Positions 10,801 to 47,553 of a stretch of DNA of 64,000 nucleotides are shown one piece after another (position 1 is the first letter of the stretch; each line of letters opens with the position of its first letter). The translations under genes and the position numbers were made by a program. Under the pieces are notes generated by a model, which did no database searches, was not told the DNA's origin, and saw nothing but the letters and a program-made list of their open reading frames with translations. The stretch comes from an uncultured Gammaproteobacteria bacterium (GTDB lineage: Bacteria > Patescibacteriota > Microgenomatia > Levybacterales > GWA1-39-11). The stretch is from positions 64,058 to 128,057 of the forward strand of contig CAYRKM010000002.1 of NCBI GenBank assembly GCA_964425075.1, written 5' to 3'.

Positions 10801-12245
10801 CTGCTGCTACTAAAAAAAGGGGCTTAACTCGGGATGTTTTTGACCAAAACACTGACGGAGCAATAGTACTACCAACAAGCAGAGAGGTAAATTTAAACAG
10901 TATTGGCATAAATCACACACGACATCACCAAATAGACAGAGAGGAAGCTTTGGCAATTACAGATTACTTCGACTCAGTGAGTCAATACCCTCTCCTTACA
11001 GTTGAGCAAGAACGTATAGCATTTAGATATCTAACTGAGGGAAAATCTGTCGCACAACTTCGTGATGATGGAGCATTTCTTGCGGCAAATCCTCGTAGCA
11101 CTGCAAAAATGCTTGCTGTACTTTCCGATAGTCGCTCCGTTAGAGATGTACTTGTTGCCTGTAATTTGAGACTCGTTGCCTCAATAGCAAATAGGTACAA
11201 AGGAAGACTTCCTTACACTGACCTGCTCCAGGAGGGAAATATTGGATTAATTAAGGGAATTGACGATTTTGACCCTGAGCGTGGATTAAAGCTTTCAACA
11301 TATGCAACCTGGTGGATTAAGCAATCAATAAGGCGTGCTATTGCTAATACGTCCCGAACTATTGACTTGCCTGTACACATGCATGAAATGGTCACAAAAA
11401 TGGTGCGTGTTTCAAATGAATTTTTTAGTAAACACCAGCGCTATCCATCTATAGAGGAGCTGGTTTCAGAAGGGTTTACTATATCCCAAGTTAACACAGC
11501 TATGCGCATAGCACGACTTGGAATTTCCAACCCCTCATCTCTTGATAGAACAATAGACGATGATGGTGAAACCACAATCGGGTCATTTGTTTCGGACGAA
11601 GGTGATCTTGAAGAAGAAACTATAGCCGCGATGGAAGAGGCTGAGCAAAGTCATATCGTTGGGCGTGCACTTTTATCTTTAAGCGAACGGGAACAGTTGG
11701 TGCTTACTCTTAGATTCGGGCTTGATGGTTCTGGCACTAGAACCCTTGAACAGGTTGGTAAAGAAATTGGTGTGACAAGAGAAAGAGCACGACAAATAGA
11801 AGTTAGTGCCCTAAAAAGACTTCGAGTAAATACCGGGCTTAGGGAGGCATACGATGGAGATTCCCCAAGTTTGCTTTGGTCAAGGGAAGTCTTGCCTACA
11901 AACGTATTGCCTCTTAGACCAGGGCCAATAGACATTGAGAGGGTCTCAGCAATCTCACAAGCTCAAGAAGTAGAAAGGTTGGAGGAGGAGAAAAACAGTC
12001 TTGAATTTGGCAGACAAGTTGTGGAACAAATAAAAATGGTACCTGATATATGGAATGCTTTAACTGATAGAGAGAAGACGCTTTTGACTCTTTATTTTAA
12101 AGGCACATTTGACCACAACACTACTAAAAGTAGACTTTCAAAAATCTTTGGCATAACCGAACAAGAGCTGTCTGTTTACATCGAGTATTCTGTTGCTTCT
12201 CTAGCCAAACACGTTGGTATGACATCCTCTGAGCTTCCTTCTTGA
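7809..12245 (+). CDS. fusion protein: unknown N-terminal region + SNF2-family ATPase + complete sigma-70 + extra C-terminal region-4-like HTH
   Basis: Single 1478-codon ORF with no internal stop. The track start is TTG at 7809, and an ATG lies at 7818. SNF2 motifs: LADEPGTGKT, IIDEAHNVK, QAIDRVHRIGQ. Sigma motifs: YPLLTVEQE, LLQEGNIGLIKGIDDFD, TYATWWIKQSIRRAI, TIDLPVHMHE, VTRERARQIEVSALKRLR. Confidence 0.85.
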   Translation: MSIMETLHSGFDHPPVGPAPHPDSSGRPVTHPLPGELDGEGMLDPTSLDFWRNLHANLTGFISKNYPFSDFLKNFDSEKGKVGRTHSNGDTNATYAYLNAIYKQRSFSHPGHPTLEQHIVSQFTPPTDDPDFAEIVEETRSLIRQRFPEHQLPRTTSLVKLQDPEFWSEFEDELSKTPSSSIFADFLKGGGGLSEDGSQMQGKYHDVWLDIYDPRGRTEFRNAYKEQTGRDIDTDSARDAQRIFFEVAPARIKAQLIKRYPRIFSGFAVEWVGNSQLPKAAQAVINTLGWLGEDNRKKILDVLSKYVHIETSSTSGFDFSAEDTSIILGQAAEQSEVVAAEVGPPTLETIIRDATNTFQLVEQEKLDNGNSENEQLSSELTAALETSYLYPTLRNVLYKPFALFWSKYLETHGGSSVPEDEMRSFLDTYAHNEIAQTSLSPEEQQMLERLKKNVFSTIFSEFIEIANYSSQINHFRERSIDGKAKHLFFHQVEGIKHLVEKGAGILADEPGTGKTVTLALAALNRVDQKFREPGKIARVLVVGSKTVNNNWEEELEMHVAPGDVDTVNFNSDELAQLSQAKRLEIMAQRLKNPTADRQVLLVNYDLFRNSFFQELLHSAGIDCTIIDEAHNVKSRFMDSIAEHNDDTSHNARLAKRTTNLYRFLLSNPNMDVYLGTSTPFVKELIEPLIMGHLVDRWSLPIDRVSALREDPAGANLALREVMIRRRKDAISDIPPKDTDFIPVDLSLLSAAERSELVSLGLDIERADESSFRRFFSMLSIEAQAKMPWLIEKINELTSDGRKVVVFTPFVNDQERLTASISTKAIAKRLIDSGITSVGVLDGTLSESEKLAVQRDFHDPNGVRVLVGNYQTAGESITLNSPFNRATEVIILVAPNTISRYIQAIDRVHRIGQDEKVTIHVPFLTEDPIARPDGTYDRRIVSRMLRELSLFNAVVDGLFFVEAADYYDEIRRGKNGNSEPRTALESGQTVRLDTEQKPPAATKKRGLTRDVFDQNTDGAIVLPTSREVNLNSIGINHTRHHQIDREEALAITDYFDSVSQYPLLTVEQERIAFRYLTEGKSVAQLRDDGAFLAANPRSTAKMLAVLSDSRSVRDVLVACNLRLVASIANRYKGRLPYTDLLQEGNIGLIKGIDDFDPERGLKLSTYATWWIKQSIRRAIANTSRTIDLPVHMHEMVTKMVRVSNEFFSKHQRYPSIEELVSEGFTISQVNTAMRIARLGISNPSSLDRTIDDDGETTIGSFVSDEGDLEEETIAAMEEAEQSHIVGRALLSLSEREQLVLTLRFGLDGSGTRTLEQVGKEIGVTRERARQIEVSALKRLRVNTGLREAYDGDSPSLLWSREVLPTNVLPLRPGPIDIERVSAISQAQEVERLEEEKNSLEFGRQVVEQIKMVPDIWNALTDREKTLLTLYFKGTFDHNTTKSRLSKIFGITEQELSVYIEYSVASLAKHVGMTSSELPS
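9264..10583 (+). other. SNF2/Swi2-type helicase core (N-lobe plus Helicase_C lobe) inside the fusion ORF
   Basis: aa ~486-925. Walker A LADEPGTGKT (nt 9324-9353), DEAH box IIDEAHNVK (nt 9681-9707), motif III-like LGTSTPF, motif VI QAIDRVHRIGQ (nt 10512-10544). Confidence 0.8.
10938..11828 (+). other. sigma-70 regions 1.2, 2, 3 and 4 inside the fusion ORF
   Basis: aa ~1044-1340. By eye this aligns block for block with RpoD-type sigma factors, including the region 2.4 and 4.2 recognition helices. Confidence 0.85.
12036..12218 (+). other. second region-4-like HTH at the C-terminus of the fusion ORF
   Basis: aa ~1410-1470. LTDREKTLLTLYFKG...SRLSKIFGITEQELSVYIEYSVASLAKHV parallels the upstream LSEREQLVLTLRFGL...LEQVGKEIGVTRERARQIEVSALKRL. 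Confidence 0.55.
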
Positions 12246-12281
12246 ATAATTCTAGCCTAAGGTGTAATATTCTTCGATATA

Positions 12282-13505
12282 ATGGCTGTAGATTTTTTTA
12301 GATACTACGTAAATCAAGAATTAATAAAACAAGCATCCGAGCTTAGCTCCAAAATCTCACAACTCTCCCTTGGTGGTCAACAAGAAGAAGCAGTGAGAAG
12401 AATGAGAGAAGCGAGACTTATATTGGAGAAAGTAAGAGGAGTTGATGCTCTAACAAACCAATTTCTTGAAGGACTCGAAGGCTTAGGAATTGAGCAACCT
12501 CCAATCAGTATTTTCTCATCCCCACCGGTCTCGCTTGAGCCCGGGATACCTTCTACAATTCCTGAAGTCACAGAACCCGAAATCCCTTTAGCATCAGGCT
12601 TCGAGACACTTCCTGATGAAAAAAAACATGCGGCAGAACCTGAGACAGATAATGCACAACTAAAACTAGATGACTTGCCTTTAGTTAAAAATGAAAGAAG
12701 AGCTCGTCGTGATTTGGGTGAAATAGAAGAACGTGTTGCATTTGCGCTTTTTGCAATTAATAGAGAGGGTAGTAATTTTGCTTTTCCTACCTATAGAGAA
12801 GTTGCTGAAGCAGTTTATGAAGGCAACACCGTAAATACAAATTATGTCAAAATGTCCGTAGCCAGAATTTTTGAAAAATTTGAGACTTTTAGTAGAAATC
12901 CTGATAATTCTTTACCTGTGCTTCAGAATTTCTACGACTGGCTTGGAACCATTTCTCAATACTCACAGGGGGAAATTCCTATTGAGGTGTTTGAGTCTAT
13001 TGCCTTACGTAAAATATCTTTTGAAGAATTCGAGGCACTTCTGAAAAATGCAGCTCCCCAAGAACCCTCCGGAAGTGATGAGTCTTCATATTTAACTTTA
13101 CCAACAACCGACACGAAAGATAACGAAACTTGGGAAGAAGAGAACCCACAGCCGATTCTTAACTTTCCTGAGATAGACATGCTTTGTCAGGTTATGCTAA
13201 GTGTTCGCAAGGATTTACTTAAGGAAGCTGGACTTGGGTGGCAGGACAGTGACTTTATGGAAATTGAGGGCATTGCAGAAAGACTAGGAATACAGGAGGG
13301 AGGTTCTGATATGGAAGCGCTGTTGCAGTCACTTAGACAAAAATTGGCAATTTTCCTACAAGCAAAGGAGGCCACTCTTGTTGTAAATGCAGACAATGAA
13401 GCAGCTCTAGCGTTATTATTCTTACTTTCAGATATAAGCTCTCAAGAACATCTCGATAAACTATTTGCTTCATTTGTAGCTCAAGCTGCAATAAACATGC
13501 ATTAA
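12282..13505 (+). CDS. hypothetical acidic protein with a sigma4/LuxR-like HTH segment
   Basis: 407-aa ORF 36 nt downstream of the fusion gene on the same strand. aa ~146-201 (nt 12717-12884), GEIEERVAFALF...PTYREVAEAVYEGNTVNTNYVKMSVARIFEKF, fits an HTH pattern. The rest is unrecognised. Confidence 0.6.
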   Translation: MAVDFFRYYVNQELIKQASELSSKISQLSLGGQQEEAVRRMREARLILEKVRGVDALTNQFLEGLEGLGIEQPPISIFSSPPVSLEPGIPSTIPEVTEPEIPLASGFETLPDEKKHAAEPETDNAQLKLDDLPLVKNERRARRDLGEIEERVAFALFAINREGSNFAFPTYREVAEAVYEGNTVNTNYVKMSVARIFEKFETFSRNPDNSLPVLQNFYDWLGTISQYSQGEIPIEVFESIALRKISFEEFEALLKNAAPQEPSGSDESSYLTLPTTDTKDNETWEEENPQPILNFPEIDMLCQVMLSVRKDLLKEAGLGWQDSDFMEIEGIAERLGIQEGGSDMEALLQSLRQKLAIFLQAKEATLVVNADNEAALALLFLLSDISSQEHLDKLFASFVAQAAINMH

Positions 13506-13871
13506 CTAAGATATTATCTTAAAACCCAATACCAAAACTCTATCATCGTCTTTTACATTCTTACCATAATATTTTTCAAATACTTTTCTTTGCTCTTCTT
13601 TGGAAGAATAAACCTCATGACCATTTCTATCTATTAGTAATTCTTCGAAAATAGTCCAATATTTTTCAATGATTTTAACTTTCGCAAAAGGCTTTCCTGT
13701 TTGACTATCTTTTACCATGATTTCATCCTCAATATTTAGAAAGTCGTACTTGTTTCCTAAGCGGTAAGTGAGTGTTTTGGAGCCATTAAGAATGAGAGGA
13801 ATTAAGTCTGTAGCAAAACCTATAGCTGTATTTTTGAAAAACATAGAAGATTTATGCGTGACATTGCTCAA
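13506..13871 (-). CDS. ASCH-domain protein
   Basis: 121 aa. LILNGSKTLTYRL and the overall size and pattern fit the ASCH (PUA-like) fold. Confidence 0.65.
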   Translation of the reverse strand: MSNVTHKSSMFFKNTAIGFATDLIPLILNGSKTLTYRLGNKYDFLNIEDEIMVKDSQTGKPFAKVKIIEKYWTIFEELLIDRNGHEVYSSKEEQRKVFEKYYGKNVKDDDRVLVLGFKIIS

Positions 13872-13981
13872 GTATTACGTATTTTCTTGCCTCACTCATC
13901 CGTCCGAAGGTCGGATGAGCGGGATAAGAACACTTCGCCCTGCTCAGAACCTTGTCCCGTCAAAAAATCCTAGATTTTTTG

Positions 13982-14052
13982 AGCGGGATAGGAGAATCGA
14001 ACTCCTTACCTCAGATTGGAAATCTGATGTTTTACCGGTAAACTAATCCCGC
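13982..14052 (-). tRNA. tRNA-Gly (TCC)
   Basis: Hand-folded. Acceptor GCGGGAT/ATCCCGC, anticodon arm TCAGA-TTTCCAA-TCTGA, T-arm AGGAG-TTCGATT-CTCCT. Confidence 0.85.
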
Positions 14053-14163
14053 TAGTATTTTCAAAGGAAATTAGTTTGCTTATTCATTTCTGAAAACCAA
14101 ACTAATAACGCTTTTGCTTAAGCTAATTAAGCTTCAAAATTATACCAAAGGAAAAAGCAGTAA

Positions 14164-15333
14164 TCAACTTTTTTTCGTGCGTTTGAGTTCAACGAAGTAA
14201 AAAAGAGCAATTCCTATAAGTACTAAAAATGCGCTAATAAAAAATGGGGCTCTTAGGCCAAAACTTGCTATAGAGTAGCCTATCACAATAGGCCCTATGA
14301 CTCTTCCCAAGCTCTCAAATGAGAATGCAAGTCCCATTGTTACTCCCTGGCCCTCAGTTGTTTGCTTTGACAAAAAAGCATTTACTGATGGCCGAGTCAG
14401 TGAGCTCCCTACAACGTAGGATATTGAAAAAATAAGAAAAAATGGCAATAGTGGAACTAGCGTTGCTGCAATTAGTCCTCCGGCAAGCAAAATAATTCCT
14501 ATCAAAATTGCATATAGATCGCCCACCTTTTTCTCAAGTTTTGCAAGAATTACCCATTGCGTAAATGCTGCTGTAAATCCAGTACCTGAAAAAAGTAATC
14601 CATTTTGTAGAGCGCTAAACCCAAAAACTCCCTGTGTATAAAATGGAATAGAAATACTAAAATTTGTAACATAGAATCCCCACACAAGCGTAAGGTAAAA
14701 AAGTACTCCAAACTTACCCTTCAGCGCAAGATACAGTGGCTTTATATTAATTAAACCCTCCCTAATACTAATGGTTTTATCCCTCTCAGTTACTGTTTCT
14801 TGAAGGAAAAACGTAATAATAAGAAGATTGACAAGTCCCACTCCAAATGCGACAAAAAATGGTGTTTGGAGCGCATGACTTCCCAAAAAACCCCCAATTG
14901 CCGGTCCCACAATAAACCCAAGCGCAAATGTACCTGTAACGCGTGAAATGTACTTCGAGCGATTATCCCCCTTTGAAACATCGGCTACATAAGCAAGGGC
15001 TGCGGGCAAAACTCCCGAAGTTCCTATTCCTTGAAAAGCCATACCTACAAAAACCCAACCAAGTGAGGGCGCAAATCCCGTTACCAGGAAAGAGAAAGCA
15101 TTTGCTCCTATTGAAAATAGTAATACAGGTTTTCTACCATACCTGTCTGAGAATTTACCCATGAGAGGAGCAAGTAAAAATTGAACAATTGCAAGAGTTG
15201 AGGCGAGAAGTCCTACTTGAAAAGAAGTTGCATTAAAGTGTTGCGCAAATAAGGGCAATATTGGAAATATCATCCCGACTCCAATAATATTTATAAAAAC
15301 TGTTACATATAACCAATAAAATTTCTTTTCCAT
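14164..15333 (-). CDS. MFS transporter
   Basis: 389 aa, about 12 TM helices. The MFS loop 2-3 signature GKFSDRYGRKP is present. Confidence 0.85.
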   Translation of the reverse strand: MEKKFYWLYVTVFINIIGVGMIFPILPLFAQHFNATSFQVGLLASTLAIVQFLLAPLMGKFSDRYGRKPVLLFSIGANAFSFLVTGFAPSLGWVFVGMAFQGIGTSGVLPAALAYVADVSKGDNRSKYISRVTGTFALGFIVGPAIGGFLGSHALQTPFFVAFGVGLVNLLIITFFLQETVTERDKTISIREGLINIKPLYLALKGKFGVLFYLTLVWGFYVTNFSISIPFYTQGVFGFSALQNGLLFSGTGFTAAFTQWVILAKLEKKVGDLYAILIGIILLAGGLIAATLVPLLPFFLIFSISYVVGSSLTRPSVNAFLSKQTTEGQGVTMGLAFSFESLGRVIGPIVIGYSIASFGLRAPFFISAFLVLIGIALFYFVELKRTKKS

Positions 15334-15571
15334 AATCTATTAGTAAATATAGGAGCCCATTAAATACACATTTTCAAATTGGCTCAATGAAGATACTATC
15401 ATTCAAATTGAGGATGAGCAACACAAAAAAATTTCACTAAAAAACAACATCCAGTAAAGGATTTTAGAAATATCAATCTTTCACAAAACCTTCACCTTAT
15501 GTCTTTTCCGGAAATAGTATGTCTACCAATTTTGCAGACATAAGGCAGATAAATGAATCCTTACTACCAAC

Positions 15572-15787
15572 CTATTTCTTTCCACCCATTTGTTTTTCCC
15601 AGAGTAGCCAAAGACCAGATAACCCAACCAAAACGTACACTAACCATTCAACTGTTGGCCAAGCTCCAAGAAGCAAATTCACTACGTTGTAATTCGTTCC
15701 GCCCATAAATCCACCAAGTCCAACGAGCAACCAGTTAACCGCACCTACTATAACTAACCACCAAGCGAGAGTTTGTAATGTTTTCAT
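15572..15787 (-). CDS. DUF378-family small membrane protein
   Basis: 71 aa. WWLVIVGAVNWLLVGL...NVVNLLLG is typical of DUF378. A strong SD (AAGGAGGTGA) lies 5 nt upstream. Confidence 0.75.
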   Translation of the reverse strand: MKTLQTLAWWLVIVGAVNWLLVGLGGFMGGTNYNVVNLLLGAWPTVEWLVYVLVGLSGLWLLWEKQMGGKK

Positions 15788-15893
15788 TTTTTATCACCTC
15801 CTTTCGTATAGCCTAATTTAATAGTAGAACTGTTTTGGAATATTAGTCAAGGGGGTAAAATATCAGTACAAGAAGCCTTAAGGTGTACATTCC

Positions 15894-16114
15894 GTCGGGG
15901 ATAAAGCAAGTTTGTCCCCTTCTTCATTTCATTCAGTCGGGGATAAGGAAACCTTGTCCCCACCAAATTCTTCGAGTTTGTCGGGGATAGAGGACTCGTT
16001 CTGTGAAACAGCCTGCAAGACAATCCGACCTGCCGAAGGCAATAATGTCGGGGATAGAGGACTCGTTCTGTGAAACAGTCTGCAAGACAATCCGACCTGC
16101 CGAAGGCAATAATG
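15894..16114 (-). repeat. tandem truncated tRNA-Pro-derived repeats downstream of tRNA-Pro
   Basis: GTCGGGGATA recurs starting at 15894, 15936, 15980, 16047 and 16114. The last copy is the true tRNA 3' end. The two 67-nt units (15980-16046, 16047-16113) differ at 1 nt and carry 19 nt of the tRNA T-arm/acceptor 3' side. Confidence 0.85.
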
Positions 16115-16187
16115 TCGGGGATAGAGGACTCGAACCTCCGACCTCACGGTCCCAAACCGCGCGCTCTACCAACTGAGCTAATCCCCG
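16115..16187 (-). tRNA. tRNA-Pro (TGG)
   Basis: Hand-folded. Acceptor CGGGGAT/ATCCCCG, anticodon loop TTTGGGA, T-loop TTCGAGT. Confidence 0.9.
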
Positions 16188-16408
16188 AATTGTTTATATT
16201 GTAATTCCTCACCTCATCAAATACAAGATTTGAGTCTAAGTGGTGTAAAGTGTATCAAACCACATAATGACCATGTGGATAAGTTCAAATAGTACTTGAC
16301 AAACAGAGTTTGAACGTGCATATTAGTATGGTAAGTTCAAATGAGCTTAAATCATTCTAAAGAATATTTAGAAAGATTATTATAATTGAAAGGAGGTGAA
16401 GTAAAGAT

Positions 16409-16585
16409 ATGAAAATGCAATTTTATGATGTAAAGACTCGAAGCAAAGTTGACGCTGAAGTAACTGAAAAGACTACTTACCAAGTAAAGGGACAAACTAA
16501 ATACGCTGTAAAGGGAAAGACTTCAGACGGACGAAATTTGACTAGATTCGTAAGCAAAGATGCATACGACTCAGCAAACGTTTAG
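16409..16585 (+). CDS. 58-aa Lys-rich small protein (not in ORF track, below 60 aa)
   Basis: ATG preceded by AAGGAGGTGA. Translation: MKMQFYDVKTRSKVDAEVTEKTTYQVKGQTKYAVKGKTSDGRNLTRFVSKDAYDSANV. A TTGACA box lies at 16296-16301, and a 13-bp hairpin at 16621-16651 follows the gene. Confidence 0.6.
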   Translation: MKMQFYDVKTRSKVDAEVTEKTTYQVKGQTKYAVKGKTSDGRNLTRFVSKDAYDSANV

Positions 16586-16650
16586 TCAGCAGTGTGTTGT
16601 ACGCAATACACTACAAATTACATTAACAGGCCGCTTGACGGTCTGTTAAT

Positions 16651-17448
16651 GTGTATAAAAAACATATGGAAGTTTTAGTATATATTCTCTTATTTAACCT
16701 TTTTGGGAGCGTCATTTCACTTTTTGGTGGAGTACTTCTTCTCCTAAATAGAAATTTTTCACATAGTGTCTCTCATTATCTTTCCTCATTTGCTGCTGGA
16801 ACACTACTTGGAGCAGCTTTTTTTGACCTTTTACCTGAAGCATTGGGTGAGGGAGAGCATTCTGGGATAAAGATAATTACAATTTTTGCTTGGACACTAA
16901 CAGGTATTTTGTTTTTCTTTCTTATTGAAAGATTTTTGCATTGGTTTCATCATCATGGCTACGAAGACCATGAAGCTACCGGAAAACCCACAATTCCACT
17001 AATTGTAATAGGAGATACAATCCATAACTTCATTGATGGGATTGCAATTGCCGCAACATTTATGCTTAGTATTCCACTTGGAATAGTTACCACCTTTGCA
17101 GTTGCCGCTCATGAAATACCTCAAGAAATTGGTGACTTTGGTATTATGCTTAAGAATGGGCTAAGCCGAAGAAAGATACTGACAGTAAATATAGGCAGCG
17201 CATTAGCCTCCTTTATTGGAGCCATTCTTGCTTTTTATTTCATAGAGCAAGTAGAGGGTCTTACTGCAATATTTCTATCTCTAACCGCCGGCTTTTTCTT
17301 ATATATAGCACTTTCAGATCTTATTCCAGAGATTCATCACGAAAACAAAAAAGGGCTTGCTCTTTGGGAAACAACTTGCCTTTTAACTGGAGTAATTGTT
17401 ATGTACCTTGCTATTTTAATTCTGGAGAGTTCATTGGGGGGACACTAG
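16651..17448 (+). CDS. ZIP-family divalent metal transporter (ZupT-like)
   Basis: HNFIDGIAIAA and HEIPQEIGDFG signatures, plus a His-rich loop HWFHHHGYEDHE. The start is probably the ATG at 16666 rather than the GTG at 16651. Confidence 0.85.
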   Translation: MYKKHMEVLVYILLFNLFGSVISLFGGVLLLLNRNFSHSVSHYLSSFAAGTLLGAAFFDLLPEALGEGEHSGIKIITIFAWTLTGILFFFLIERFLHWFHHHGYEDHEATGKPTIPLIVIGDTIHNFIDGIAIAATFMLSIPLGIVTTFAVAAHEIPQEIGDFGIMLKNGLSRRKILTVNIGSALASFIGAILAFYFIEQVEGLTAIFLSLTAGFFLYIALSDLIPEIHHENKKGLALWETTCLLTGVIVMYLAILILESSLGGH

Positions 17449-40341: not shown

Positions 40342-40383
40342 TATTCTTTACAAACTTATCAATCCCCCCTATAATATCAACTT

Positions 40384-41244
40384 ATGGCTGAAACAAAAGC
40401 ACCCAAAACTACAAAACCAACCGAGGGAATTACAAGAAAACCCGATGGAACTATCGAGCTTACTGTTGTTATTCCTTGGTCAACGGCTTTAAAGGCACGA
40501 GAGGAAATAGAGGAGGATCTTCTTAAACACGTACAAGTTGCAGGCTTTAGAAAAGGTGCCGCTCCCAAAAATATTGCTAAAGGAAAACTAAATCCGGAGT
40601 TGGTTAGGGAAGAAATGCTTAAAAAGCTTATCGGAAAAGCATATAACGAAGCAGTAGAAAAGGAAAAACTTGTTCCTATTATTTCCCCAAGAATTCATAT
40701 AGACGTCTTTGAGGAAGGAACTGATATTGTATTTACAGCGGAAACTTGCGAAGAGCCTCAGGTTGAGCTTGGCAAATATAAAGACGACATACAGAAAGTG
40801 ACAGCGAAAGGTAAAATTATTGTACCCGGAAAAGAAGAAGAAAAGCCCTCCGTAGACGAGATACTTACCGCAGGTATTTCAGGAACAAAAATACAAATTC
40901 CCAATGTATTGGTAGAAAATGAAATCTCAAGACTTTTATCTCAAATGCTTGATGAGCTGAAGAAAATTGGCCTTACGCTTGATCAATATTTAGAATCTCG
41001 CAAACTTAATCCTGAACAACTTAGAGAAGAGTATAAAAATAAAGCTGAAAATGACCTTAAATTAGAATTCTTTTTAAGAAAAGTTGCAGATAGTGAGAAA
41101 ATAACTGTTGAAAAAGAGGATATTGAAAAGGCCCTAAACACTATAGAAAATCCAAAAGAACGTGAAGAAATTATGAAAAACCCATATCTTGTCGCCTCAA
41201 TTATAAGACAGCAAAAAACCCTCGATTTTCTTACGAAACTTTAG
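40384..41244 (+). CDS. tig: trigger factor, short form lacking a recognisable PPIase domain
   Basis: The ribosome-binding signature GFRKGAAP sits in the N-terminal domain. The protein is 286 aa in total and goes straight into the helical C-terminal arm region. Confidence 0.75.
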   Translation: MAETKAPKTTKPTEGITRKPDGTIELTVVIPWSTALKAREEIEEDLLKHVQVAGFRKGAAPKNIAKGKLNPELVREEMLKKLIGKAYNEAVEKEKLVPIISPRIHIDVFEEGTDIVFTAETCEEPQVELGKYKDDIQKVTAKGKIIVPGKEEEKPSVDEILTAGISGTKIQIPNVLVENEISRLLSQMLDELKKIGLTLDQYLESRKLNPEQLREEYKNKAENDLKLEFFLRKVADSEKITVEKEDIEKALNTIENPKEREEIMKNPYLVASIIRQQKTLDFLTKL

Positions 41245-41365
41245 ATTCTTGCATAATTCTGTCTTTTTTATTTAAGAATTTCTGATACAATTGAGAAAAG
41301 TACTGCCACTTAGAATAAATTAATATAGGTTGATTTTTGAGCTTAAATCACATATAATTTAGGTT

Positions 41366-42028
41366 ATGAAACGGCAGGGGACAACCCCAAAATTTAAATA
41401 CACTGGTGAAGAAAGGGTTCGCTCTGAGGGAAGTGACTTGCTTGAGAGATTTTTCAAAACCGCAAAAACCGCAACTGAGGCTAAGAAAGTAGTAAGCGGT
41501 GTTCAGTCTGAGGCTAAAAAAAGCTTAGAAACCGCAGCTTTTCAGCTTTTTGGTGTATCTAGAGAGCTTAAGTCTGGACAAGAAGTAAAACTTCAACACG
41601 ACAATGAGGGAAAAGCCCCACATGAAGCAAAACCACAAGTAACTGAGGCTTTTCTTGAATATAGAGCTTCTCTTAGCAAACCAGAGTCCAGAAAGGACAG
41701 AGAGGCTCAGACTGAAATAAGTCAGCAAATTGAAATGGTTTTGGCCGAACTTCGCAACCTAAAAGAATCTTCCGACGAACTAAATGCCGCTTTTAAAGAT
41801 GTTGTTGTGGATGAAGTTCCTGAAAAACCAGGTATTTACCACCTAAGATTCTTTGAGGGATTTTTGAAAATGATAATGAAATTAAGAGAAAAAGTAGACG
41901 ATGCATCCATCTTTGCTAAGCTTTTTAGAAGCCGAAAGCAGGAAAGAAGATACTCATCTATGGCCAAAAAGAGTGGCACAAGCTTTACGCTTCACCACGA
42001 TAGAGCTGTAGCAACCCAAAGCGGATAA
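41366..42028 (+). CDS. hypothetical protein
   Basis: 220-aa ORF. TATAAT (41353-41358) ends 7 nt before the ATG. No family recognised. Confidence 0.55.
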   Translation: MKRQGTTPKFKYTGEERVRSEGSDLLERFFKTAKTATEAKKVVSGVQSEAKKSLETAAFQLFGVSRELKSGQEVKLQHDNEGKAPHEAKPQVTEAFLEYRASLSKPESRKDREAQTEISQQIEMVLAELRNLKESSDELNAAFKDVVVDEVPEKPGIYHLRFFEGFLKMIMKLREKVDDASIFAKLFRSRKQERRYSSMAKKSGTSFTLHHDRAVATQSG

Positions 42029-42180
42029 CTTCCCCAATAATATTGACAAGCAGGCAGTTTCGTTGTTAAATATAATTTATTCTATGAATAAAAACCTTTA
42101 CCACATTGCTATGGTGCTCCTTCTAGGAGTGTAGTAGTGTGGGAGGAAGAGTGATCTAAAACACAAAAAATATTTATAAA

Positions 42181-42204
42181 CCTCCCACCAGGGGAGGTTT
42201 TTTT
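42181..42204 (+). terminator. intrinsic terminator (possibly bidirectional) in the leader of the micro-ORF cluster
   Basis: CCTCCC-ACCAG-GGGAGG followed by T7. An upstream A-run (ACACAAAAAA) complements the T-run. GTGGGAGG at 42139-42146 can alternatively pair with CCTCCCAC at 42181-42188. Confidence 0.6.
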
Positions 42205-42228
42205 GTGTGTAAAAAGGAGGTGAAAAAT

Positions 42229-42351
42229 ATGAGAGAAAATAAATTTACAGATGTATCTGAGACAGTGCAGGCTTTGCCTGTCATATTTAAAGTGCAAGAA
42301 AACTCTCAATTCAAAACATGTTTGAACGAAATAATTTTCCTAAAAATTTAG
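42229..42351 (+). CDS. 40-aa micro-ORF with perfect SD (not in ORF track)
   Basis: AAAGGAGGTGA lies 6 nt upstream of the ATG. Translation: MRENKFTDVSETVQALPVIFKVQENSQFKTCLNEIIFLKI. It overlaps the next ORF in a different frame. Confidence 0.4.
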   Translation: MRENKFTDVSETVQALPVIFKVQENSQFKTCLNEIIFLKI

Positions 42352-42533
42352 ACTTTCTCCCGTTGGAAGAAAGAGAAGCGTTGAGAGCATGCGGACGACT
42401 AGTTGAAGGAGATTTTGGTGGTGAGGAACCTATAAGAGTATTTGAAAGCTCAACCAATTCTTGGGAAACTAGAGAGGTTACACGTTTCGTAGCGCTGGAA
42501 AACGGTGTGCCAGTTACAATTTTTTCCTTATGA
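42318..42533 (+). CDS. 71-aa hypothetical ORF (no SD of its own)
   Basis: Track ORF. Its frame is open from 42291 and overlaps the 42229 ORF by 34 nt. It may be the 3' part of one frameshifted gene. Confidence 0.4.
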   Translation: MFERNNFPKNLDFLPLEEREALRACGRLVEGDFGGEEPIRVFESSTNSWETREVTRFVALENGVPVTIFSL

Positions 42534-42536
42534 TAC

Positions 42537-42565
42537 TTGACATAGTATTCGGAAGTTATTAGAAT
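42537..42565 (+). promoter_or_regulatory. sigma-70-type promoter
   Basis: TTGACA (42537-42542), 17-nt spacer, TAGAAT (42560-42565). Confidence 0.55.
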
Positions 42566-42616
42566 AGATTTTATGCAAAACCAGGTAAAACTATTTTCGT
42601 TTTACTTTACCTTCGC

Positions 42617-42693
42617 CTAGCGGAGGTTGGTTTTCATTGTAAAAATTAACCTCCGAAGACTCGAACAGTCGAGTCGCTAGCGGAGGTTTTTTT
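42617..42693 (+). promoter_or_regulatory. terminator/antiterminator-like leader
   Basis: CTAGCGGAGGTT occurs twice (42617-42628 and 42677-42688). Either copy can pair with AACCTCCG (42648-42655). The second pairing encloses hairpin 42658-42675 and is followed by a T-run. Confidence 0.55.
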
Positions 42694-42759
42694 GTGGATT
42701 AATGGAAAAAATTGGCTTGCCCAGAGGAAGTAAAGCCAACGAAAGGAGGTGAATTATTT

Positions 42760-42972
42760 ATGGTTATAGAAACAAGACAACAAATGAAAGCTGGTGTTAT
42801 GGACACTATGGCTATGCCAGGGCCTACAGCTAAGGGATCGAACTCTCTGTGGCTTGAAAAGGCTATTGCGTTTAATAAACTTGCACGCGAAGGAGCTGAG
42901 CATGATGCCCAAGTAATTGCTTTTGCTGAACTAGCTGCAAATGTTCCTTACACATTAAAGGTAATCCGCTAG
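42760..42972 (+). CDS. 70-aa hypothetical small protein
   Basis: ATG at 42760 preceded by GAAAGGAGGTGA. The track start (TTG at 42712) is less likely. Translation begins MVIETRQQMKAGVMDTMAMPGPTAKGS... Confidence 0.6.
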   Translation: MVIETRQQMKAGVMDTMAMPGPTAKGSNSLWLEKAIAFNKLAREGAEHDAQVIAFAELAANVPYTLKVIR

Positions 42973-43010
42973 CTAGCACACAAAATTTTAAAAGAAAGGA
43001 GGAAAAAAAT

Positions 43011-43241
43011 ATGAGCGAAATATTAAGAAGAGCAGGTTATCATAGCACTCTTGCAGACGTTGGTACTCTACGTGAAGCAAGACCAGCTAACCATCACACC
43101 ACTAATATGCCAGATGGTGATTTGCCTGTTTTTGATCAGGAACAAGCCGAATTTGGATATCCTGCGCAATCAGCATTACCAAAAGAAACGCCTATGCCAG
43201 AGTCCTTGCTTCATGCAGGAGAACCTTTGAAGATTTTATAA
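43011..43241 (+). CDS. 76-aa hypothetical small protein
   Basis: ATG preceded by AAAGGAGGAAAAAAAT. No family recognised. Confidence 0.6.
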   Translation: MSEILRRAGYHSTLADVGTLREARPANHHTTNMPDGDLPVFDQEQAEFGYPAQSALPKETPMPESLLHAGEPLKIL

Positions 43242-43299
43242 TATTAAGAGTTTCTTGATTTGAGGCAAAAAATACATTACACTACGGAAAAGTGAACAA

Positions 43300-43451
43300 T
43301 TGGTTCAGTTGGTTGCGATGAATTCATTCATCGAGCGATGTTAGAAGTGTGGAGTTGTAACTCAGTTGGGGTTCGACTTTTGAAAAATGGACTCATAAGC
43401 AGAGTTTGCTTTTTGTTTTCGAAAAGTAGCTCAGTTGGTTACATTTTGTGT
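43300..43451 (+). repeat. tRNA-fragment debris (D-arm-like pieces) upstream of tRNA-Val(GAC)
   Basis: CAGTTGG-containing D-arm-like strings at about 43302-43315, 43358-43377 (with GGTTCGAC) and 43427-43441. The last, TAGCTCAGTTGGTTA, is identical to 43459-43473 inside the tRNA. Confidence 0.7.
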
Positions 43452-43525
43452 GGACGATTAGCTCAGTTGGTTAGAGCGTTGCATTGACATTGCAAAGGTC
43501 ACAAGTTCGAATCTTGTATCGTCCA
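43452..43525 (+). tRNA. tRNA-Val (GAC)
   Basis: Hand-folded. Acceptor GGACGAT/ATCGTCC, anticodon arm TTGCA-TTGACAT-TGCAA, T-loop TTCGAAT. The flanks 43442-43451 and 43525-43534 extend the acceptor helix to 17 bp. Confidence 0.9.
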
Positions 43526-43534
43526 CACAAAATG

Positions 43535-43623
43535 CGCTGAAGCGTTGCATTGACATTGCAGAGGCCAGAGAAGGAATTTCATTAATGAAATTCGACTGTC
43601 GTCAGCGAATCCTCTTGGGTCCA
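43535..43623 (+). pseudogene. decayed tRNA-Val-like remnant
   Basis: 20 nt at 43541-43560 are identical to the anticodon arm at 43475-43494. The remnant ends in ...GGGTCCA directly followed by the CTTCACTTCGTTCAGTGCA trailer. No intact T-arm or acceptor is present. Confidence 0.45.
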
Positions 43624-43690
43624 CTTCACTTCGTTCAGTGCAGGCACTTCAGTTTCGTTCAGCACGGGTACTTCGTTACACTCAGCACAG
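43624..43690 (+). repeat. tRNA-trailer repeat array
   Basis: CTTCACTTCGTTCAGTGCAGGCACTTCAGTTTCGTTCAGCACGGGTACTTCGTTACACTCAGCACAGACAC, i.e. three progressively degenerate units. Confidence 0.8.
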
Positions 43691-43702
43691 ACACATTTTC
43701 CC

Positions 43703-43751
43703 ATACTTGATACATACTTCAAAATACTTAATACTTAATACTAAATACTTA
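43703..43751 (+). repeat. ATACTTA heptamer microsatellite just upstream of the HD-domain gene
   Basis: ATACTTA/ATACTTA/ATACTAA/ATACTTA in tandem at 43724-43751, plus ATACTTG at 43703-43709. It ends 10 nt before the ATG at 43762. Confidence 0.7.
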
Positions 43752-43761
43752 ATTCTTTCTT

Positions 43762-44340
43762 ATGACCCGGCAAGAGGCATATCAAACACTACAGCTATAT
43801 ACAAAGTCTCAAACTCTAATTCGCCATCATTTGGCAGTTGAGGCAGCCATGCGTGCTGTTGCAAAAAAACTCATTTCTAAAGGTATTGAAAACATTGATA
43901 TTGAGCTTTGGGGGTTAACTGGACTGTTGCATGACGCAGACTACGAGATTACACGCAAAAATCCTGAAAGACATACTCTTTATCTCGAAGAAAAACTAGG
44001 CAAAACCCTTCCCCCAGGCGTAATTCAAGCAATAAAATCTCATAACAGCAAACACACAAACACTCAGCCCCAAACACCTATGGACTGGGCACTTTTCTGC
44101 GTAGATGAGCTTACAGGATTTGTTATCAAAACTGCGATGCTTACGAATGACAAGAGAATAGCAAGCCTTTCCTCGGACGGAGTGATATTACAGATAAACG
44201 ATAAATCAAATGCGAAATATGTAAAAAAAGAGCAAATTCTCGCATGCGAAACTCAACTTCACATTCCACTAAAAGAATTTGTAGAGCTCGTCCTTAACTC
44301 GATGAAGACTGTTGCAAACCAGCTTGGATTTACTCAATAA
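43762..44340 (+). CDS. HD-domain phosphohydrolase
   Basis: HHLAVEAAMRAVA ... LTGLLHDADYE (H...HD...D pattern). Confidence 0.75.
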   Translation: MTRQEAYQTLQLYTKSQTLIRHHLAVEAAMRAVAKKLISKGIENIDIELWGLTGLLHDADYEITRKNPERHTLYLEEKLGKTLPPGVIQAIKSHNSKHTNTQPQTPMDWALFCVDELTGFVIKTAMLTNDKRIASLSSDGVILQINDKSNAKYVKKEQILACETQLHIPLKEFVELVLNSMKTVANQLGFTQ

Positions 44341-44618: not shown

Positions 44619-45869
44619 ATGGATGATTTAGCACCAAATGACCACAAAAGACTTGGCCGCGAACTTGGTCTTTTTACGTTTTCCGACACTGTAGGAAAAG
44701 GACTGCCACTTTTTACCCCAAAAGGCTCAGTTATTAGACGCGAGTTAGAGCGTTTTATTGTTGACGAGGAGTTAAAGCGAGGCTACCAACACGTATATAC
44801 CCCTGACATTGCAAAGCTTGAATTGTATAAAAAATCAGGACATTATCCCTACTACAAAGACTCTATGTATGCCCCAATCACTATAGAGGATGAGGAATTT
44901 ATGCTTCGTCCCATGACTTGCCCTCATCATTTTGAGCTTTATCTTACTCGTCCACATAGCTACAAAGAACTTCCAATGAGAATCGCAGAGCTTGCAAAAC
45001 TGTATAGATTTGAGCAATCAGGTGAGCTAATGGGCCTGCAACGCGTACGGACATTTTGCCTAGCTGATGCCCATATTATTACCTCGCTTATAAATGTTGA
45101 AGAGGAAATCCAAAGCGTCCTTGATCTTATTGAATTTATTGCAAATACATTCAAACTCGAACAAGGAAAAGACTATCGTTATCGATTATCTTTGGGGGAC
45201 AGGAAGGACAGTAAGAAATACTTTAAAGATGATGCTTCTTGGGATATGGCAGAGAAAACTTTAAAAAAGGTATTAACCGACAGAAAAGCTCACTTTGTTG
45301 AAGCTGAAAATGAAGCAGCGTTTTATGGTCCAAAAATTGATATTCAAATGAAAAACACTAATGGTAAAGAGGATACAGCCTTTACTGTCCAGCATGACTT
45401 TGTTATGCCAAAACGTTTTGAATTAAGATATATAAATGAAAAAGGAGAAGAAGAGCAACCTGTTGTCATACACCGCTCATCAATTGGTGCAATTGAGCGT
45501 GTGATGGCTTTTTTAATAGAACACTATAAAGGCGCTTTCCCAATGTGGTTATCCCCTGTCCAGGCGGTTGTAATGGCAGTTTCTGATAAGTTTGATGCAT
45601 ACGCAAAAGAAGTATTTGAGGAGTTAAAAAGCAATGGGATTAGGGTTGAATTCGACAATTCTAATAACACGCTTGGTAACAAAATCCGTGAGGCTACTTT
45701 ACAAAAAGTACCCTACATGTGTATAATAGGCGGTCAGGAAGAACAAGAGTTTAAAGAAAGTGGAAAAAGAGTAATTACAGTAAGAACCCGAGAAGGAAAG
45801 GATCTGGGCAAGAAAGAACTTGACGAATTTATCAAGGGATTAAAAAAAGAAATTGAGACCAAACAATAA
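44619..45869 (+). CDS. thrS: threonyl-tRNA synthetase, catalytic core plus anticodon-binding domain only
   Basis: The protein starts at the DHKRLGRELGLF motif. It has FMLRPMTCPHH and class II motifs and is 416 aa, with no TGS or editing domains. TGTTAGAAT ends 6 nt before the ATG. Confidence 0.85.
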   Translation: MDDLAPNDHKRLGRELGLFTFSDTVGKGLPLFTPKGSVIRRELERFIVDEELKRGYQHVYTPDIAKLELYKKSGHYPYYKDSMYAPITIEDEEFMLRPMTCPHHFELYLTRPHSYKELPMRIAELAKLYRFEQSGELMGLQRVRTFCLADAHIITSLINVEEEIQSVLDLIEFIANTFKLEQGKDYRYRLSLGDRKDSKKYFKDDASWDMAEKTLKKVLTDRKAHFVEAENEAAFYGPKIDIQMKNTNGKEDTAFTVQHDFVMPKRFELRYINEKGEEEQPVVIHRSSIGAIERVMAFLIEHYKGAFPMWLSPVQAVVMAVSDKFDAYAKEVFEELKSNGIRVEFDNSNNTLGNKIREATLQKVPYMCIIGGQEEQEFKESGKRVITVRTREGKDLGKKELDEFIKGLKKEIETKQ

Positions 45870-47090: not shown

Positions 47091-47115
47091 ATTTAGACTG
47101 AAATATACCTGAAGG

Positions 47116-47138
47116 CCTCCCAAACGGGAGGTTTTTTT
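47116..47138 (+). terminator. intrinsic terminator after rplT
   Basis: CCTCCC-AAAC-GGGAGG followed by T7. Confidence 0.8.
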
Positions 47139-47148
47139 GTTTTCAAAC

Positions 47149-47553
47149 ATGAAGCATATTGAAGAAGTCGCAGTTGTGGTTATCGTAAACAGTAATGGAG
47201 AAGTGCTTGTAACTCAAAGGGATGATCCATCTACCCCTATAATTCATCTGAAGTGGCAACTACCAGGTGGAGGCAAAGAGAAAAACGAAACGCTTGAGGA
47301 AACATGCATCAGAGAGGCAAAAGAGGAAACTGGATTAACAGTTAAACTTGTTACAAAAACTCCTCATAAAATTACTCAAGAGCTTCCAAGAAGAAATTTG
47401 TTGCTTTGTGGTTTTAAGGCCATACCAACTTCTGGTACAATTAATACTGAACTTGATAAAGAAACGAGGGACGCAAAGTGGTTATCTCGAGATGAGATAA
47501 ATAAACTCGATTTGCTACCAAAAACAATTGAAATGATTGATGCGTGTTATTAA
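47149..47553 (+). CDS. Nudix hydrolase
   Basis: Nudix box GGGKEKNETLEETCIREAKEETG. I use the ATG at 47149 because the track start lies inside the terminator. Confidence 0.8.
   Translation: MKHIEEVAVVVIVNSNGEVLVTQRDDPSTPIIHLKWQLPGGGKEKNETLEETCIREAKEETGLTVKLVTKTPHKITQELPRRNLLLCGFKAIPTSGTINTELDKETRDAKWLSRDEINKLDLLPKTIEMIDACY

Follow-up and report, generated by a model that had tools for sequence, protein, structure and literature searches.

The stretch of DNA analyzed here (the window, 64,000 nt of contig CAYRKM010000002.1) contains four small open reading frames (ORFs) of 40, 71, 70, and 76 aa between a 220-aa ORF that ends at position 42028 and a tRNA-Val gene. The question raised by this locus is why such ORFs, three of which carry strong Shine-Dalgarno sequences (SDs), should stand behind two structured leaders. 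A preliminary description of the DNA had recorded the four ORFs, all of which are present, and had proposed an accessory, tightly regulated small-protein module, a proposal upheld by the promoters, the terminator-bearing leaders, the SD-led ORFs, and the hypervariable slot in which they lie. What it overlooked was a mini-ORF at the start of each leader and a set of mutually exclusive helices. With these included, we consider it probable that the region is transcribed as two units in tandem, with a ribosome-mediated leader-peptide attenuator of transcription at the head of each (leader A and leader B) and orphan small proteins as the cargo of both.

Mini-ORFs and alternative helices of the two leaders

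The leaders, the cargo ORFs, and the tRNA-Val boundary of the window are on the plus strand. Leader B is preceded by a promoter at 42537 to 42565 (TTGACA-17-TAGAAT) that matches the consensus at 11 of 12 positions. Its mini-ORF (42573 to 42620) begins with an ATG located 7 nt after the −10 box, has no SD, and encodes MQNQVKLFSFYFTFA followed by TAG. Segment 1 (ACCTTCGC, 42609 to 42616) and segment 2 (GCGGAGGT, 42620 to 42627, also written GCGGAGGTT) together span 42609 to 42628, with the stop codon lying partly in the 3-nt loop between them. The terminator (42648 to 42693) is formed by segment 3 (AACCTCCG, 42648 to 42655) and segment 4 (GCGGAGGTT, 42680 to 42688), which is followed by T7, and encloses a variable inner hairpin (42658 to 42675) whose stem sequence changes from relative to relative, with a self-complementary stretch in each as judged by eye and not scored. 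Three pairings of the four segments are possible, 1:2, 2:3, and 3:4. Across 13 sequences, helix 1:2 was 100% paired and helix 3:4 was 97% paired; the terminator state (1:2 plus 3:4) reached 98.6% compared with 36 to 61% for slid controls, and the antiterminator 2:3 reached 97% compared with 36 to 57%. A 7-bp hairpin (TTGGCTT..AAGCCAA, 42712 to 42739) also lies 3′ of this terminator, ahead of the SD for the 70-aa ORF; the related contig L003 does not conserve it.

Leader A has the same layout. Its promoter (42043 to 42076) consists of TTGACA at 42043 to 42048 followed either, after 18 nt, by TAAATA (42067 to 42072) or, at a spacing of 22 nt, by an overlapping TATAAT (42071 to 42076), and is weaker than that of leader B, so that of the two TTGACA promoters proposed earlier the second stands as a strong match and the first only as a weaker one. 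The counterpart in L004 has TTGACA-18-TAGAAT at an equal distance to the mini-ORF. Mini-ORF A (42084 to 42137) encodes MNKNLYHIAMVLLLGV followed by two TAG codons, has no SD, and starts 7 to 11 nt after the −10 box; from this spacing, its transcript is predicted to be leaderless or nearly so. A helix that would act as an anti-antiterminator, P1 (42095 to 42146), has its 5′ arm within the mini-ORF and its 3′ arm in the stop codons and segment 2, and encloses a small hairpin (CTCCTTCTAGGAG, 42117 to 42129). Segment 2 (GTGGGAGG, 42139 to 42146), the antiterminator strand, is the complement of segment 3 (CCTCCCAC, 42181 to 42188), which forms the 5′ side of the terminator. The intrinsic terminator itself (AAACCTCCC-ACCAG-GGGAGGTTT and a T-run) lies at 42178 to 42204, and its helix was 96% paired in 11 family members. 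In an alignment fitted to the structure model, P1 exhibited changes on both sides in 12 of its 16 pairs and a covariation score of 0.289 compared with 0.21 for shuffles, of which 1 in 500 reached the observed value. RNAalifold applied to a MAFFT alignment of leader A did not recover P1 owing to register shifts, and the model-based alignment was used instead. The hairpin and T-run that the preliminary description had placed at the end of each leader were thus confirmed, and the leaders folded well below shuffled sequences (z = −5.2 for leader A and −4.3 for leader B).

Both leaders belong to families. Covariance models built from relatives scored the window leaders at 103.5 bits (A) and 110.3 bits (B), and the only other match in the rest of the 64 kb was a bare terminator after rplT. 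All 23 leaders examined had a sigma-70-type promoter with the −10 box ending 6 to 12 nt before the ATG of the mini-ORF, and no SD was found before the mini-ORF in any of them. The start, frame, and stop of the mini-ORF were conserved in the 23 leaders, its length was 14 to 17 codons, and its stop was located 0 to 9 nt 5′ of segment 2, abutting it in most. Alignment gaps in leader B were of 3 or 6 nt only within the ORF and of any length in the spacer. Rfam gave no match other than tRNA at gathering thresholds in the searched region; with E values up to 10 there were weak matches on the leader A terminator only, to Phe_leader (24 bits, gathering threshold 55) and His_leader (19 bits, gathering threshold 49). 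A degenerate third leader was observed in L009 (7118 to 7228), where it scored 34.6 bits to the leader A model before an 81-aa ORF. It keeps the GGGGAGGG, CCTCCCC, and GGAGG segments without a plausible mini-ORF and may be a decayed or constitutive variant.

The encoded peptides were distinct in composition. Leader B peptides end in three aromatic residues followed by TFA or TFV and the stop, as in MQNQVKLFSFYFTFA (window), MRKTNQFFFSFWYTFA (L006), and MKHRNLINFGFFFTFV (L022). Among the 12 family members, Phe accounted for 24% of residues compared with 5.4% in the background and F, Y, and W together for 36% compared with 9.4%, and positions −6 to −4 from the stop were always aromatic. Leader A peptides, of 14 to 17 residues, fell into three subtypes. 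The first ends in ..LLLGV at the stop and includes the window peptide with its two stop codons together with L030, L034, and L035, and an L004 variant ends in ..LLIGVR; Leu made up 32% of residues in this subtype (A1) compared with 10% in the background. The second, ending in ..IPS, was found in L003 and in L032, which encodes MHRSLQIIDIIIPS, and the third (A3) follows the pattern ..FS.TR..L.LIK.

In both leaders, the stop codon adjoins a segment with two possible partners, one lying 5′ of it and the other being the terminator's 5′ arm, which is the geometry of trp/phe-type attenuators. The nascent RNA was folded with the footprint of a ribosome masked. With the mask 4 codons before the stop, segment 2 was free and captured segment 3 in 12 of 12 A leaders and 11 of 11 B leaders, and with the mask at the stop codon, segment 2 was covered and the terminator arm was free. 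With no ribosome, P1 formed in leader A and the terminator arm stayed free in most members; in leader B, helix 2:3 nested in 1:4 was favored, so that a stem once more abuts the U-run. These outcomes follow the three-state logic known from the trp, phe, and leu attenuators. The permissive zone covers codons Leu 12 to 14 in leader A and Phe/Tyr 8 to 12 in leader B.

We propose that RNA polymerase would start 0 to 5 nt 5′ of the mini-ORF and that a ribosome would translate the mini-ORF without an SD. If the ribosome reached the stop, or if there were no translation, the segment after the stop would be covered or paired backwards, the GC-rich hairpin with its U7 would form, and transcription would end after approximately 121 nt. 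If instead the ribosome stalled a few codons earlier, at those Leu codons in A or those Phe/Tyr codons in B, the segment after the stop would be free to pair with the terminator's 5′ arm, and read-through would extend into the SD-led small ORFs, those of 40 and 71 aa behind A and those of 70 and 76 aa behind B.

The 3′ arm of the terminator was itself observed to be SD-like (GGAGG) in every leader (42191 to 42207 and 42680 to 42696 in the window, and 21 leaders in L003 to L035). After it come U7 and a GTG or ATG codon in 20 of 23 leaders, at an ideal spacing between SD and start; for leader A of the window this codon is the GTG at 42205, which shares its reading frame with the 40-aa ORF. A short ORF starting after the U-run ends in an ATGA overlap with the start codon of the cargo in L032 (before ilvA) and L035. 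The SD-like arm may lock translation and release it only when the antiterminated fold has formed.

Amino acid genes behind related leaders

A search of metagenomes with the leader B motif led to a sister lineage whose L20 protein is 57 to 62% identical to that of the window. (Scans with this DNA motif also returned many high-GC chance matches, which were dropped on composition and context, and an initial scan for related contigs with the DUF5660 protein gave no match.) In L019, L020, L022, L025, and L028 of these contigs, leader B is located between rplT and pheS, and in L025 and L028 a DAHP synthase gene (Pfam, E = 6e−30) lies between leader B and pheS. The Ile-rich leader A relative encoding MHRSLQIIDIIIPS is located directly 5′ of ilvA in L032. 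The reading of the mini-ORFs as amino acid sensors is based chiefly on these associations with pheS, DAHP synthase, and ilvA. On the basis of codon content and gene neighbors, we infer that leader B senses the charging of Phe or aromatic tRNAs, and leader A probably senses Leu.

At the corresponding rplT-pheS junction of the window (47091 to 47150) there is only a terminator (AAGGCCTCCCAAACGGGAGGTTTTTTT, 47112 to 47138), which resembles the leader terminators in shape, and a NUDIX gene; no mini-ORF is found there. Two observations were made in the relatives. The DAHP synthase genes (L025, 4401 to 5177, minus strand; L028, 3045 to 3824) are on CPR-like contigs (CPR, candidate phyla radiation), and such an enzyme of aromatic biosynthesis is unexpected in genomes so reduced. 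In L019 (1357 to 1716), the rplT frame continues through the last codons of the leader peptide (..VAEVKKFTFA) as far as the leader TAG, so the L20 gene replaces the mini-ORF in this variant.

By the features through which such an attenuator is recognized, the window leaders have an enriched ORF predicted to be translated, an intrinsic terminator, and a competing antiterminator together with an upstream helix that overlaps the end of the ORF, whereas cognate regulated genes were found with other family members (pheS, DAHP synthase, and ilvA) and not in the window. Several further points weigh against attenuation by amino acid supply. All of the evidence is computational or comparative and the organism is uncultured, and the window cargo has no visible tie to Phe or Leu metabolism, contrary to the usual logic of attenuators. 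The promoter of window leader A is imperfect, the leader A alignment, having been fitted to the model, is biased towards structure, and leader B shows weak covariation, its core hardly varying, which is to be expected of bases that each take part in two helices. Equilibrium folding of the complete leader A favored the terminator wherever the ribosome was placed; since such folding shows no switch, antitermination in leader A would have to be argued from the kinetics of the nascent RNA. The regulatory codons are few (three Leu and four Phe) and are partly fixed by RNA structure, with CTCCTTCTA lying in a hairpin and ACCTTCG being segment 1, so that their enrichment is not a purely peptide-level signal. 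Finally, the A3 subfamily is not enriched in any amino acid, a hint of a peptide-specific or generic stalling sensor.

In such an alternative, the attenuator would be the same, and the mini-ORFs would sense nascent-peptide or drug-dependent stalling, like those of erm, cat, and ARE-ABCF genes or like arrest peptides, and would report translation stress or a small molecule. Cargo unrelated to amino acid metabolism, the conserved peptide termini (..YFTFA and ..LLLGV), and the conserved motif of A3 without single-amino-acid enrichment speak in its favor. It does not account for the members that precede pheS, DAHP synthase, and ilvA and whose peptides are correspondingly rich in Phe and aromatic residues or in Ile, nor for aromatic positions that switch among F, Y, and W yet remain aromatic, and the conservation of the termini is largely explained by the RNA helices. 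We therefore judge it to be an unlikely account, though one to be taken seriously.

The complete promoter and strong terminator of each leader, of about 120 nt, and the folds well below shuffles would equally suit stand-alone small RNA genes, perhaps with dual function, with the downstream ORFs expressed independently, and terminated attenuator RNAs do act in trans in Sinorhizobium (PMC6614838). Against this, a promoter scan gave no site between the terminators and the first cargo starts (42205 to 42229 and 42694 to 42760). In 23 loci, moreover, the cargo starts 5 to 66 nt after the terminator, and the conserved frame and stop of the mini-ORF and the antiterminator would be left unexplained. 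A small RNA function is compatible with attenuation and does not replace it; as an explanation in its own right we find it quite improbable.

The cargo ORFs and the slot that holds them

Behind the leader A attenuator, the 40-aa ORF (42229 to 42351; 48 aa if translated from the GTG at 42205, directly after the T-run) has its SD at 42213 to 42223 (AAAGGAGGTGA), and the 71-aa ORF (42318 to 42533), which has no SD, overlaps it by 34 nt in the −1 frame. Behind leader B are the 70-aa ORF (42760 to 42972, ATG at 42760), with its SD at 42741 to 42752 (GAAAGGAGGTGA), and the 76-aa ORF (43011 to 43241, ATG at 43011), with its SD at 42995 to 43005 (AAAGGAGGAAA); the 76-aa protein is acidic, with an isoelectric point of 5.1. 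Three strong SDs had been reported before, and all three exist, although the coordinates then given for them were those of the ATG starts. The motif AAGGAGG occurs at 11 sites on both strands of the window, and 3 of the 11 are in this 1.2 kb, each 7 to 9 nt before an ATG (P of approximately 1e−4 by our own estimate).

These SDs contrast with the housekeeping genes on the 5′ side. The trigger factor gene (ATG at 40384) and the DUF5660 gene (ATG at 41366) have −10 boxes ending 8 and 7 nt 5′ of the ATG; the boxes are strong and there is no SD (40347 to 40386 and 41330 to 41368), so that both genes look leaderless, and the earlier remark that many other operon-first genes of the window lack SDs and look leaderless holds for the two that were checked. 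The strong SDs of the cargo can be understood in this light: where the genes next to a promoter are leaderless, a cistron lying farther in, behind a leader that is translated, requires an SD.

Codon usage log-odds were 0.50 bits per codon for the 70-aa ORF, 0.48 for the 76-aa ORF, 0.32 for the 71-aa ORF, and an ambiguous 0.12 for the 40-aa ORF, where true 70-codon gene segments averaged 0.42 (5th percentile, 0.24) and wrong frames averaged −0.57. The 70-, 76-, and 71-aa ORFs therefore have native codon usage, that of the 71-aa ORF being within the range of true genes. For the latter, two separate genes and one frameshifted gene of about 100 aa, whose distal part it would form, are equally likely; no canonical −1 slippery heptamer was seen in the overlap of the 40- and 71-aa ORFs when the sequence and its frame translations were inspected by eye.

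The 70-aa protein has a homolog in L003 at the same place behind leader B, of 97 aa and 40% identical over 73 aa. Apart from this, none of the other slot ORFs of the relatives matched the cargo, a word-indexed search of 5.8 billion clustered proteins with the 70- and 76-aa proteins returned only themselves, and so did a HMMER search of 1.84 billion representatives with a concatenation of the four peptides. No significant match to the cargo was obtained in four libraries of hidden Markov models (Pfam, PHROGs, PADLOC, and NCBIfam), the best being a 16-bit PADLOC match (E = 0.0019). The initial impression that the peptides resemble nothing known was thus confirmed beyond the L003 homolog. AlphaFold without an alignment gave predicted local distance difference test scores of 61 (70 aa) and 51 (71 aa), which were judged too poor for fold searches. 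From these comparisons, the cargo appears to consist of predicted proteins that are lineage specific and rapidly replaced.

A toxin-antitoxin- or RiPP-like module (RiPP, ribosomally synthesized and posttranslationally modified peptide) had been suggested for the SD-led peptides of this region; a related reading would make the mini-ORFs small hydrophobic toxins of a type I kind. Mini-ORF A is indeed hydrophobic, the cargo includes a pair of small proteins (70 plus 76 aa), and the 71-aa ORF has a subthreshold match to a RiPP precursor model (E = 0.11). The leader peptides, of 14 to 17 residues (15 to 16 in the window), are too short for a membrane-spanning toxin, however, a type I module having a hydrophobic toxin of at least about 20 aa and an antisense RNA, and only one weak promoter-like site (9 of 12) was found on the minus strand of the region, at 42780 to 42753 within the 70-aa ORF, with none opposite the leaders. 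No toxin-antitoxin, defense, or RiPP family was matched at a meaningful score, the slot contains no partner toxin and no maturation or modifying enzyme, and the cargo changes in every relative while the leader stays. Neither reading is supported, and we give both very little credence. A phage origin, also proposed earlier, fared no better: PHROGs gave no significant match, and viral contigs contained no leader B and only three leader A-type matches, which cover just the terminator part of the model.

The slot is flanked on the 5′ side by the trigger factor and DUF5660 genes and on the 3′ side by tRNA-Val, an HD-domain protein, DUF5665, and thrS-infC-rpmI-rplT-(NUDIX)-pheS-pheT (Pfam). From DUF5660, DUF5665, and the one named relative, L014 (a metagenome-assembled genome of Candidatus Levyibacteriota), the window was placed in the Levyibacteria group of the CPR. 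The flanking gene order recurred in every related contig fetched, and the content between DUF5660 and tRNA-Val/HD was different in each, consisting of small ORFs of 61 to 97 aa or genes of 137 to 236 aa. A check for presence or absence in sister genomes, which had been advised at the outset, thus gave a divided answer: the leaders are conserved and the slot genes differ, and only the 70-aa ORF has a syntenic homolog. Contigs from two other samples were identical to the window and provided no usable population variation. In L032 the slot is about 8 kb and includes ilvA and ridA; at least four attenuator-headed units were observed there (8679 to 16678), including ilvA-ridA, a gene of the mandelate racemase family, and two unknown genes that each exceed 500 aa.

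At the 3′ boundary (43292 to 43567), an intact tRNA-Val(GAC) (43452 to 43526) is accompanied by three 5′-fragment pseudo-copies (43292 to 43314, 43347 to 43369, and 43418 to 43440) and, 3′ of the intact gene, by a 93% copy of the anticodon arm (43541 to 43567), in accordance with the eroded tRNA locus noted earlier. In L009 and L014, the tRNA is reversed in orientation relative to the flanking genes, and a partial tRNA copy is present there too. With its tRNA fragments and variable content, the slot between DUF5660 and tRNA-Val constitutes a hypervariable recombination or cassette hotspot. The view of the locus as an integration remnant is supported in a general sense by the tRNA copies and the turnover of cassettes, but no integrase-sized ORF was found in a search limited to the slot, where none of 100 aa or more lies between 42028 and 43762, and the leader motifs are absent from viral contigs. 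The flanking genes examined with Pfam were housekeeping or DUF genes.

Conserved structured RNA before variable genes, in a recombination hotspot with tRNA fragments, might also suggest ligand- or tRNA-binding riboswitches of the T-box kind or attC-like cassette recombination sites, but this is scarcely credible, given no Rfam match up to an E value of 10 (T-box included, in 41900 to 43800) beyond the weak ones on the leader A terminator, a conserved leader ORF that a T-box does not require, a conserved part made up of the mini-ORF end and four pairing segments with no aptamer-sized unpaired core, no integrase-sized ORF in the slot, and hairpins that are terminators with U7 and AAC/GTT ends outermost. 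The core sites of attC differ from this last arrangement.

Other features of the region were noted. A 17-nt perfect inverted repeat (43442 to 43458 and 43518 to 43534) corresponds to the tRNA-Val acceptor stem plus about 8 to 10 nt of each flank. Just 5′ of the HD-domain gene are a 23-nt tandem repeat of 3.1 copies (43622 to 43694) and AATACTT/21-nt repeats (43702 to 43757). Threonyl-tRNA synthetase is short (about 415 aa, with the core and anticodon-binding domain only) in the window (44619 to 45869), L009, and L034 and long (about 585 aa, with the editing-associated tRNA_SAD domain) in L006, L030, and L035.

Returning to leader-peptide attenuation, we tentatively suggest that the attenuators are portable heads of gene cassettes, in which case the hotspot would collect units consisting of a promoter, a leaderless leader peptide, an attenuator, and an SD-led gene. 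It is likewise conceivable, at a similarly modest level of confidence, that the cargo is made only upon failure of the Phe/aromatic or Leu/Ile supply and consists of starvation-induced effectors or growth regulators. If so, in CPR cells of the obligate-symbiont type, the cargo would be made when the host stops feeding the cell.

Comparison with known attenuators

Leader-peptide attenuation is textbook knowledge in Proteobacteria and is known in Actinobacteria. No link of it to CPR or Patescibacteria was found in the searchable literature, and the two leader families, which have no Rfam model, thus appear not to have been described for the CPR in that literature. The leaders would represent two to four related attenuator families, built on leaderless mini-ORFs, in a lineage with reduced genomes, serving both expected targets (pheS, DAHP synthase, and ilvA) and orphan genes that are rapidly exchanged. 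They would provide a sequence-level handle on nutrient sensing in CPR-type organisms and account for the sharp contrast in SD strength between gene classes in this genome, and the two covariance models offer a means of annotating regulated accessory genes across CPR genomes.

Leaderless short ORFs are also found in mycobacteria, where poly-Cys ORFs are described as Cys-responsive attenuators (bioRxiv 10.1101/834739). The likeness is in the leaderless short ORF at the 5′ end of an operon, whose amino-acid-rich codons tune the downstream genes; the phylum and the amino acid are different, and here there is an explicit pair of intrinsic terminator and antiterminator. The Sinorhizobium trpL leader is a ribosome-dependent attenuator that gives rise to a trans-acting RNA, rnTrpL, and a peptide, peTrpL (PMC6614838 and PMC7298713). 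It is of a different sequence family, and trans action has no support in the present case, where the cargo is nonmetabolic, but it illustrates that both the terminated RNA and the leader peptide of an attenuator may act in their own right.

The proteobacterial leuL and ilvL/ivbL leaders likewise encode short peptides with runs of Leu or Ile/Val, with the stop beside the antiterminator strand, and the family described here has a member with IIDIII directly before ilvA. Unlike them, the present leaders have no Rfam match, only three Leu codons located in a small hairpin, a mini-ORF that is predicted to be leaderless or nearly so, and, in the window, nonbiosynthetic cargo.

A further close parallel is with pheM (pheST) and pheL (pheA) of E. 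coli. Homology was not detectable: the E. coli phe region scored 8.9 bits (E = 1.2) against the leader B model, and Rfam Phe_leader did not match leader B. The mini-ORFs described here differ in having no SD or 5′ leader, and the window element differs from pheM in standing before the orphan 70- and 76-aa ORFs and not before pheS. The likeness is in the Phe-rich leader peptide of 14 to 16 residues, the peptides of the present leaders including ..FGFFFTFV, ..KFFFTFA, and ..SFYFTFA and that of pheM having 14 residues, and in the four segments pairing as 1:2, 2:3, and 3:4 with a U-run terminator. The site is shared as well, since the pheM junction between infC-rpmI-rplT and pheS-pheT is the position occupied by leader B in the sister lineage.

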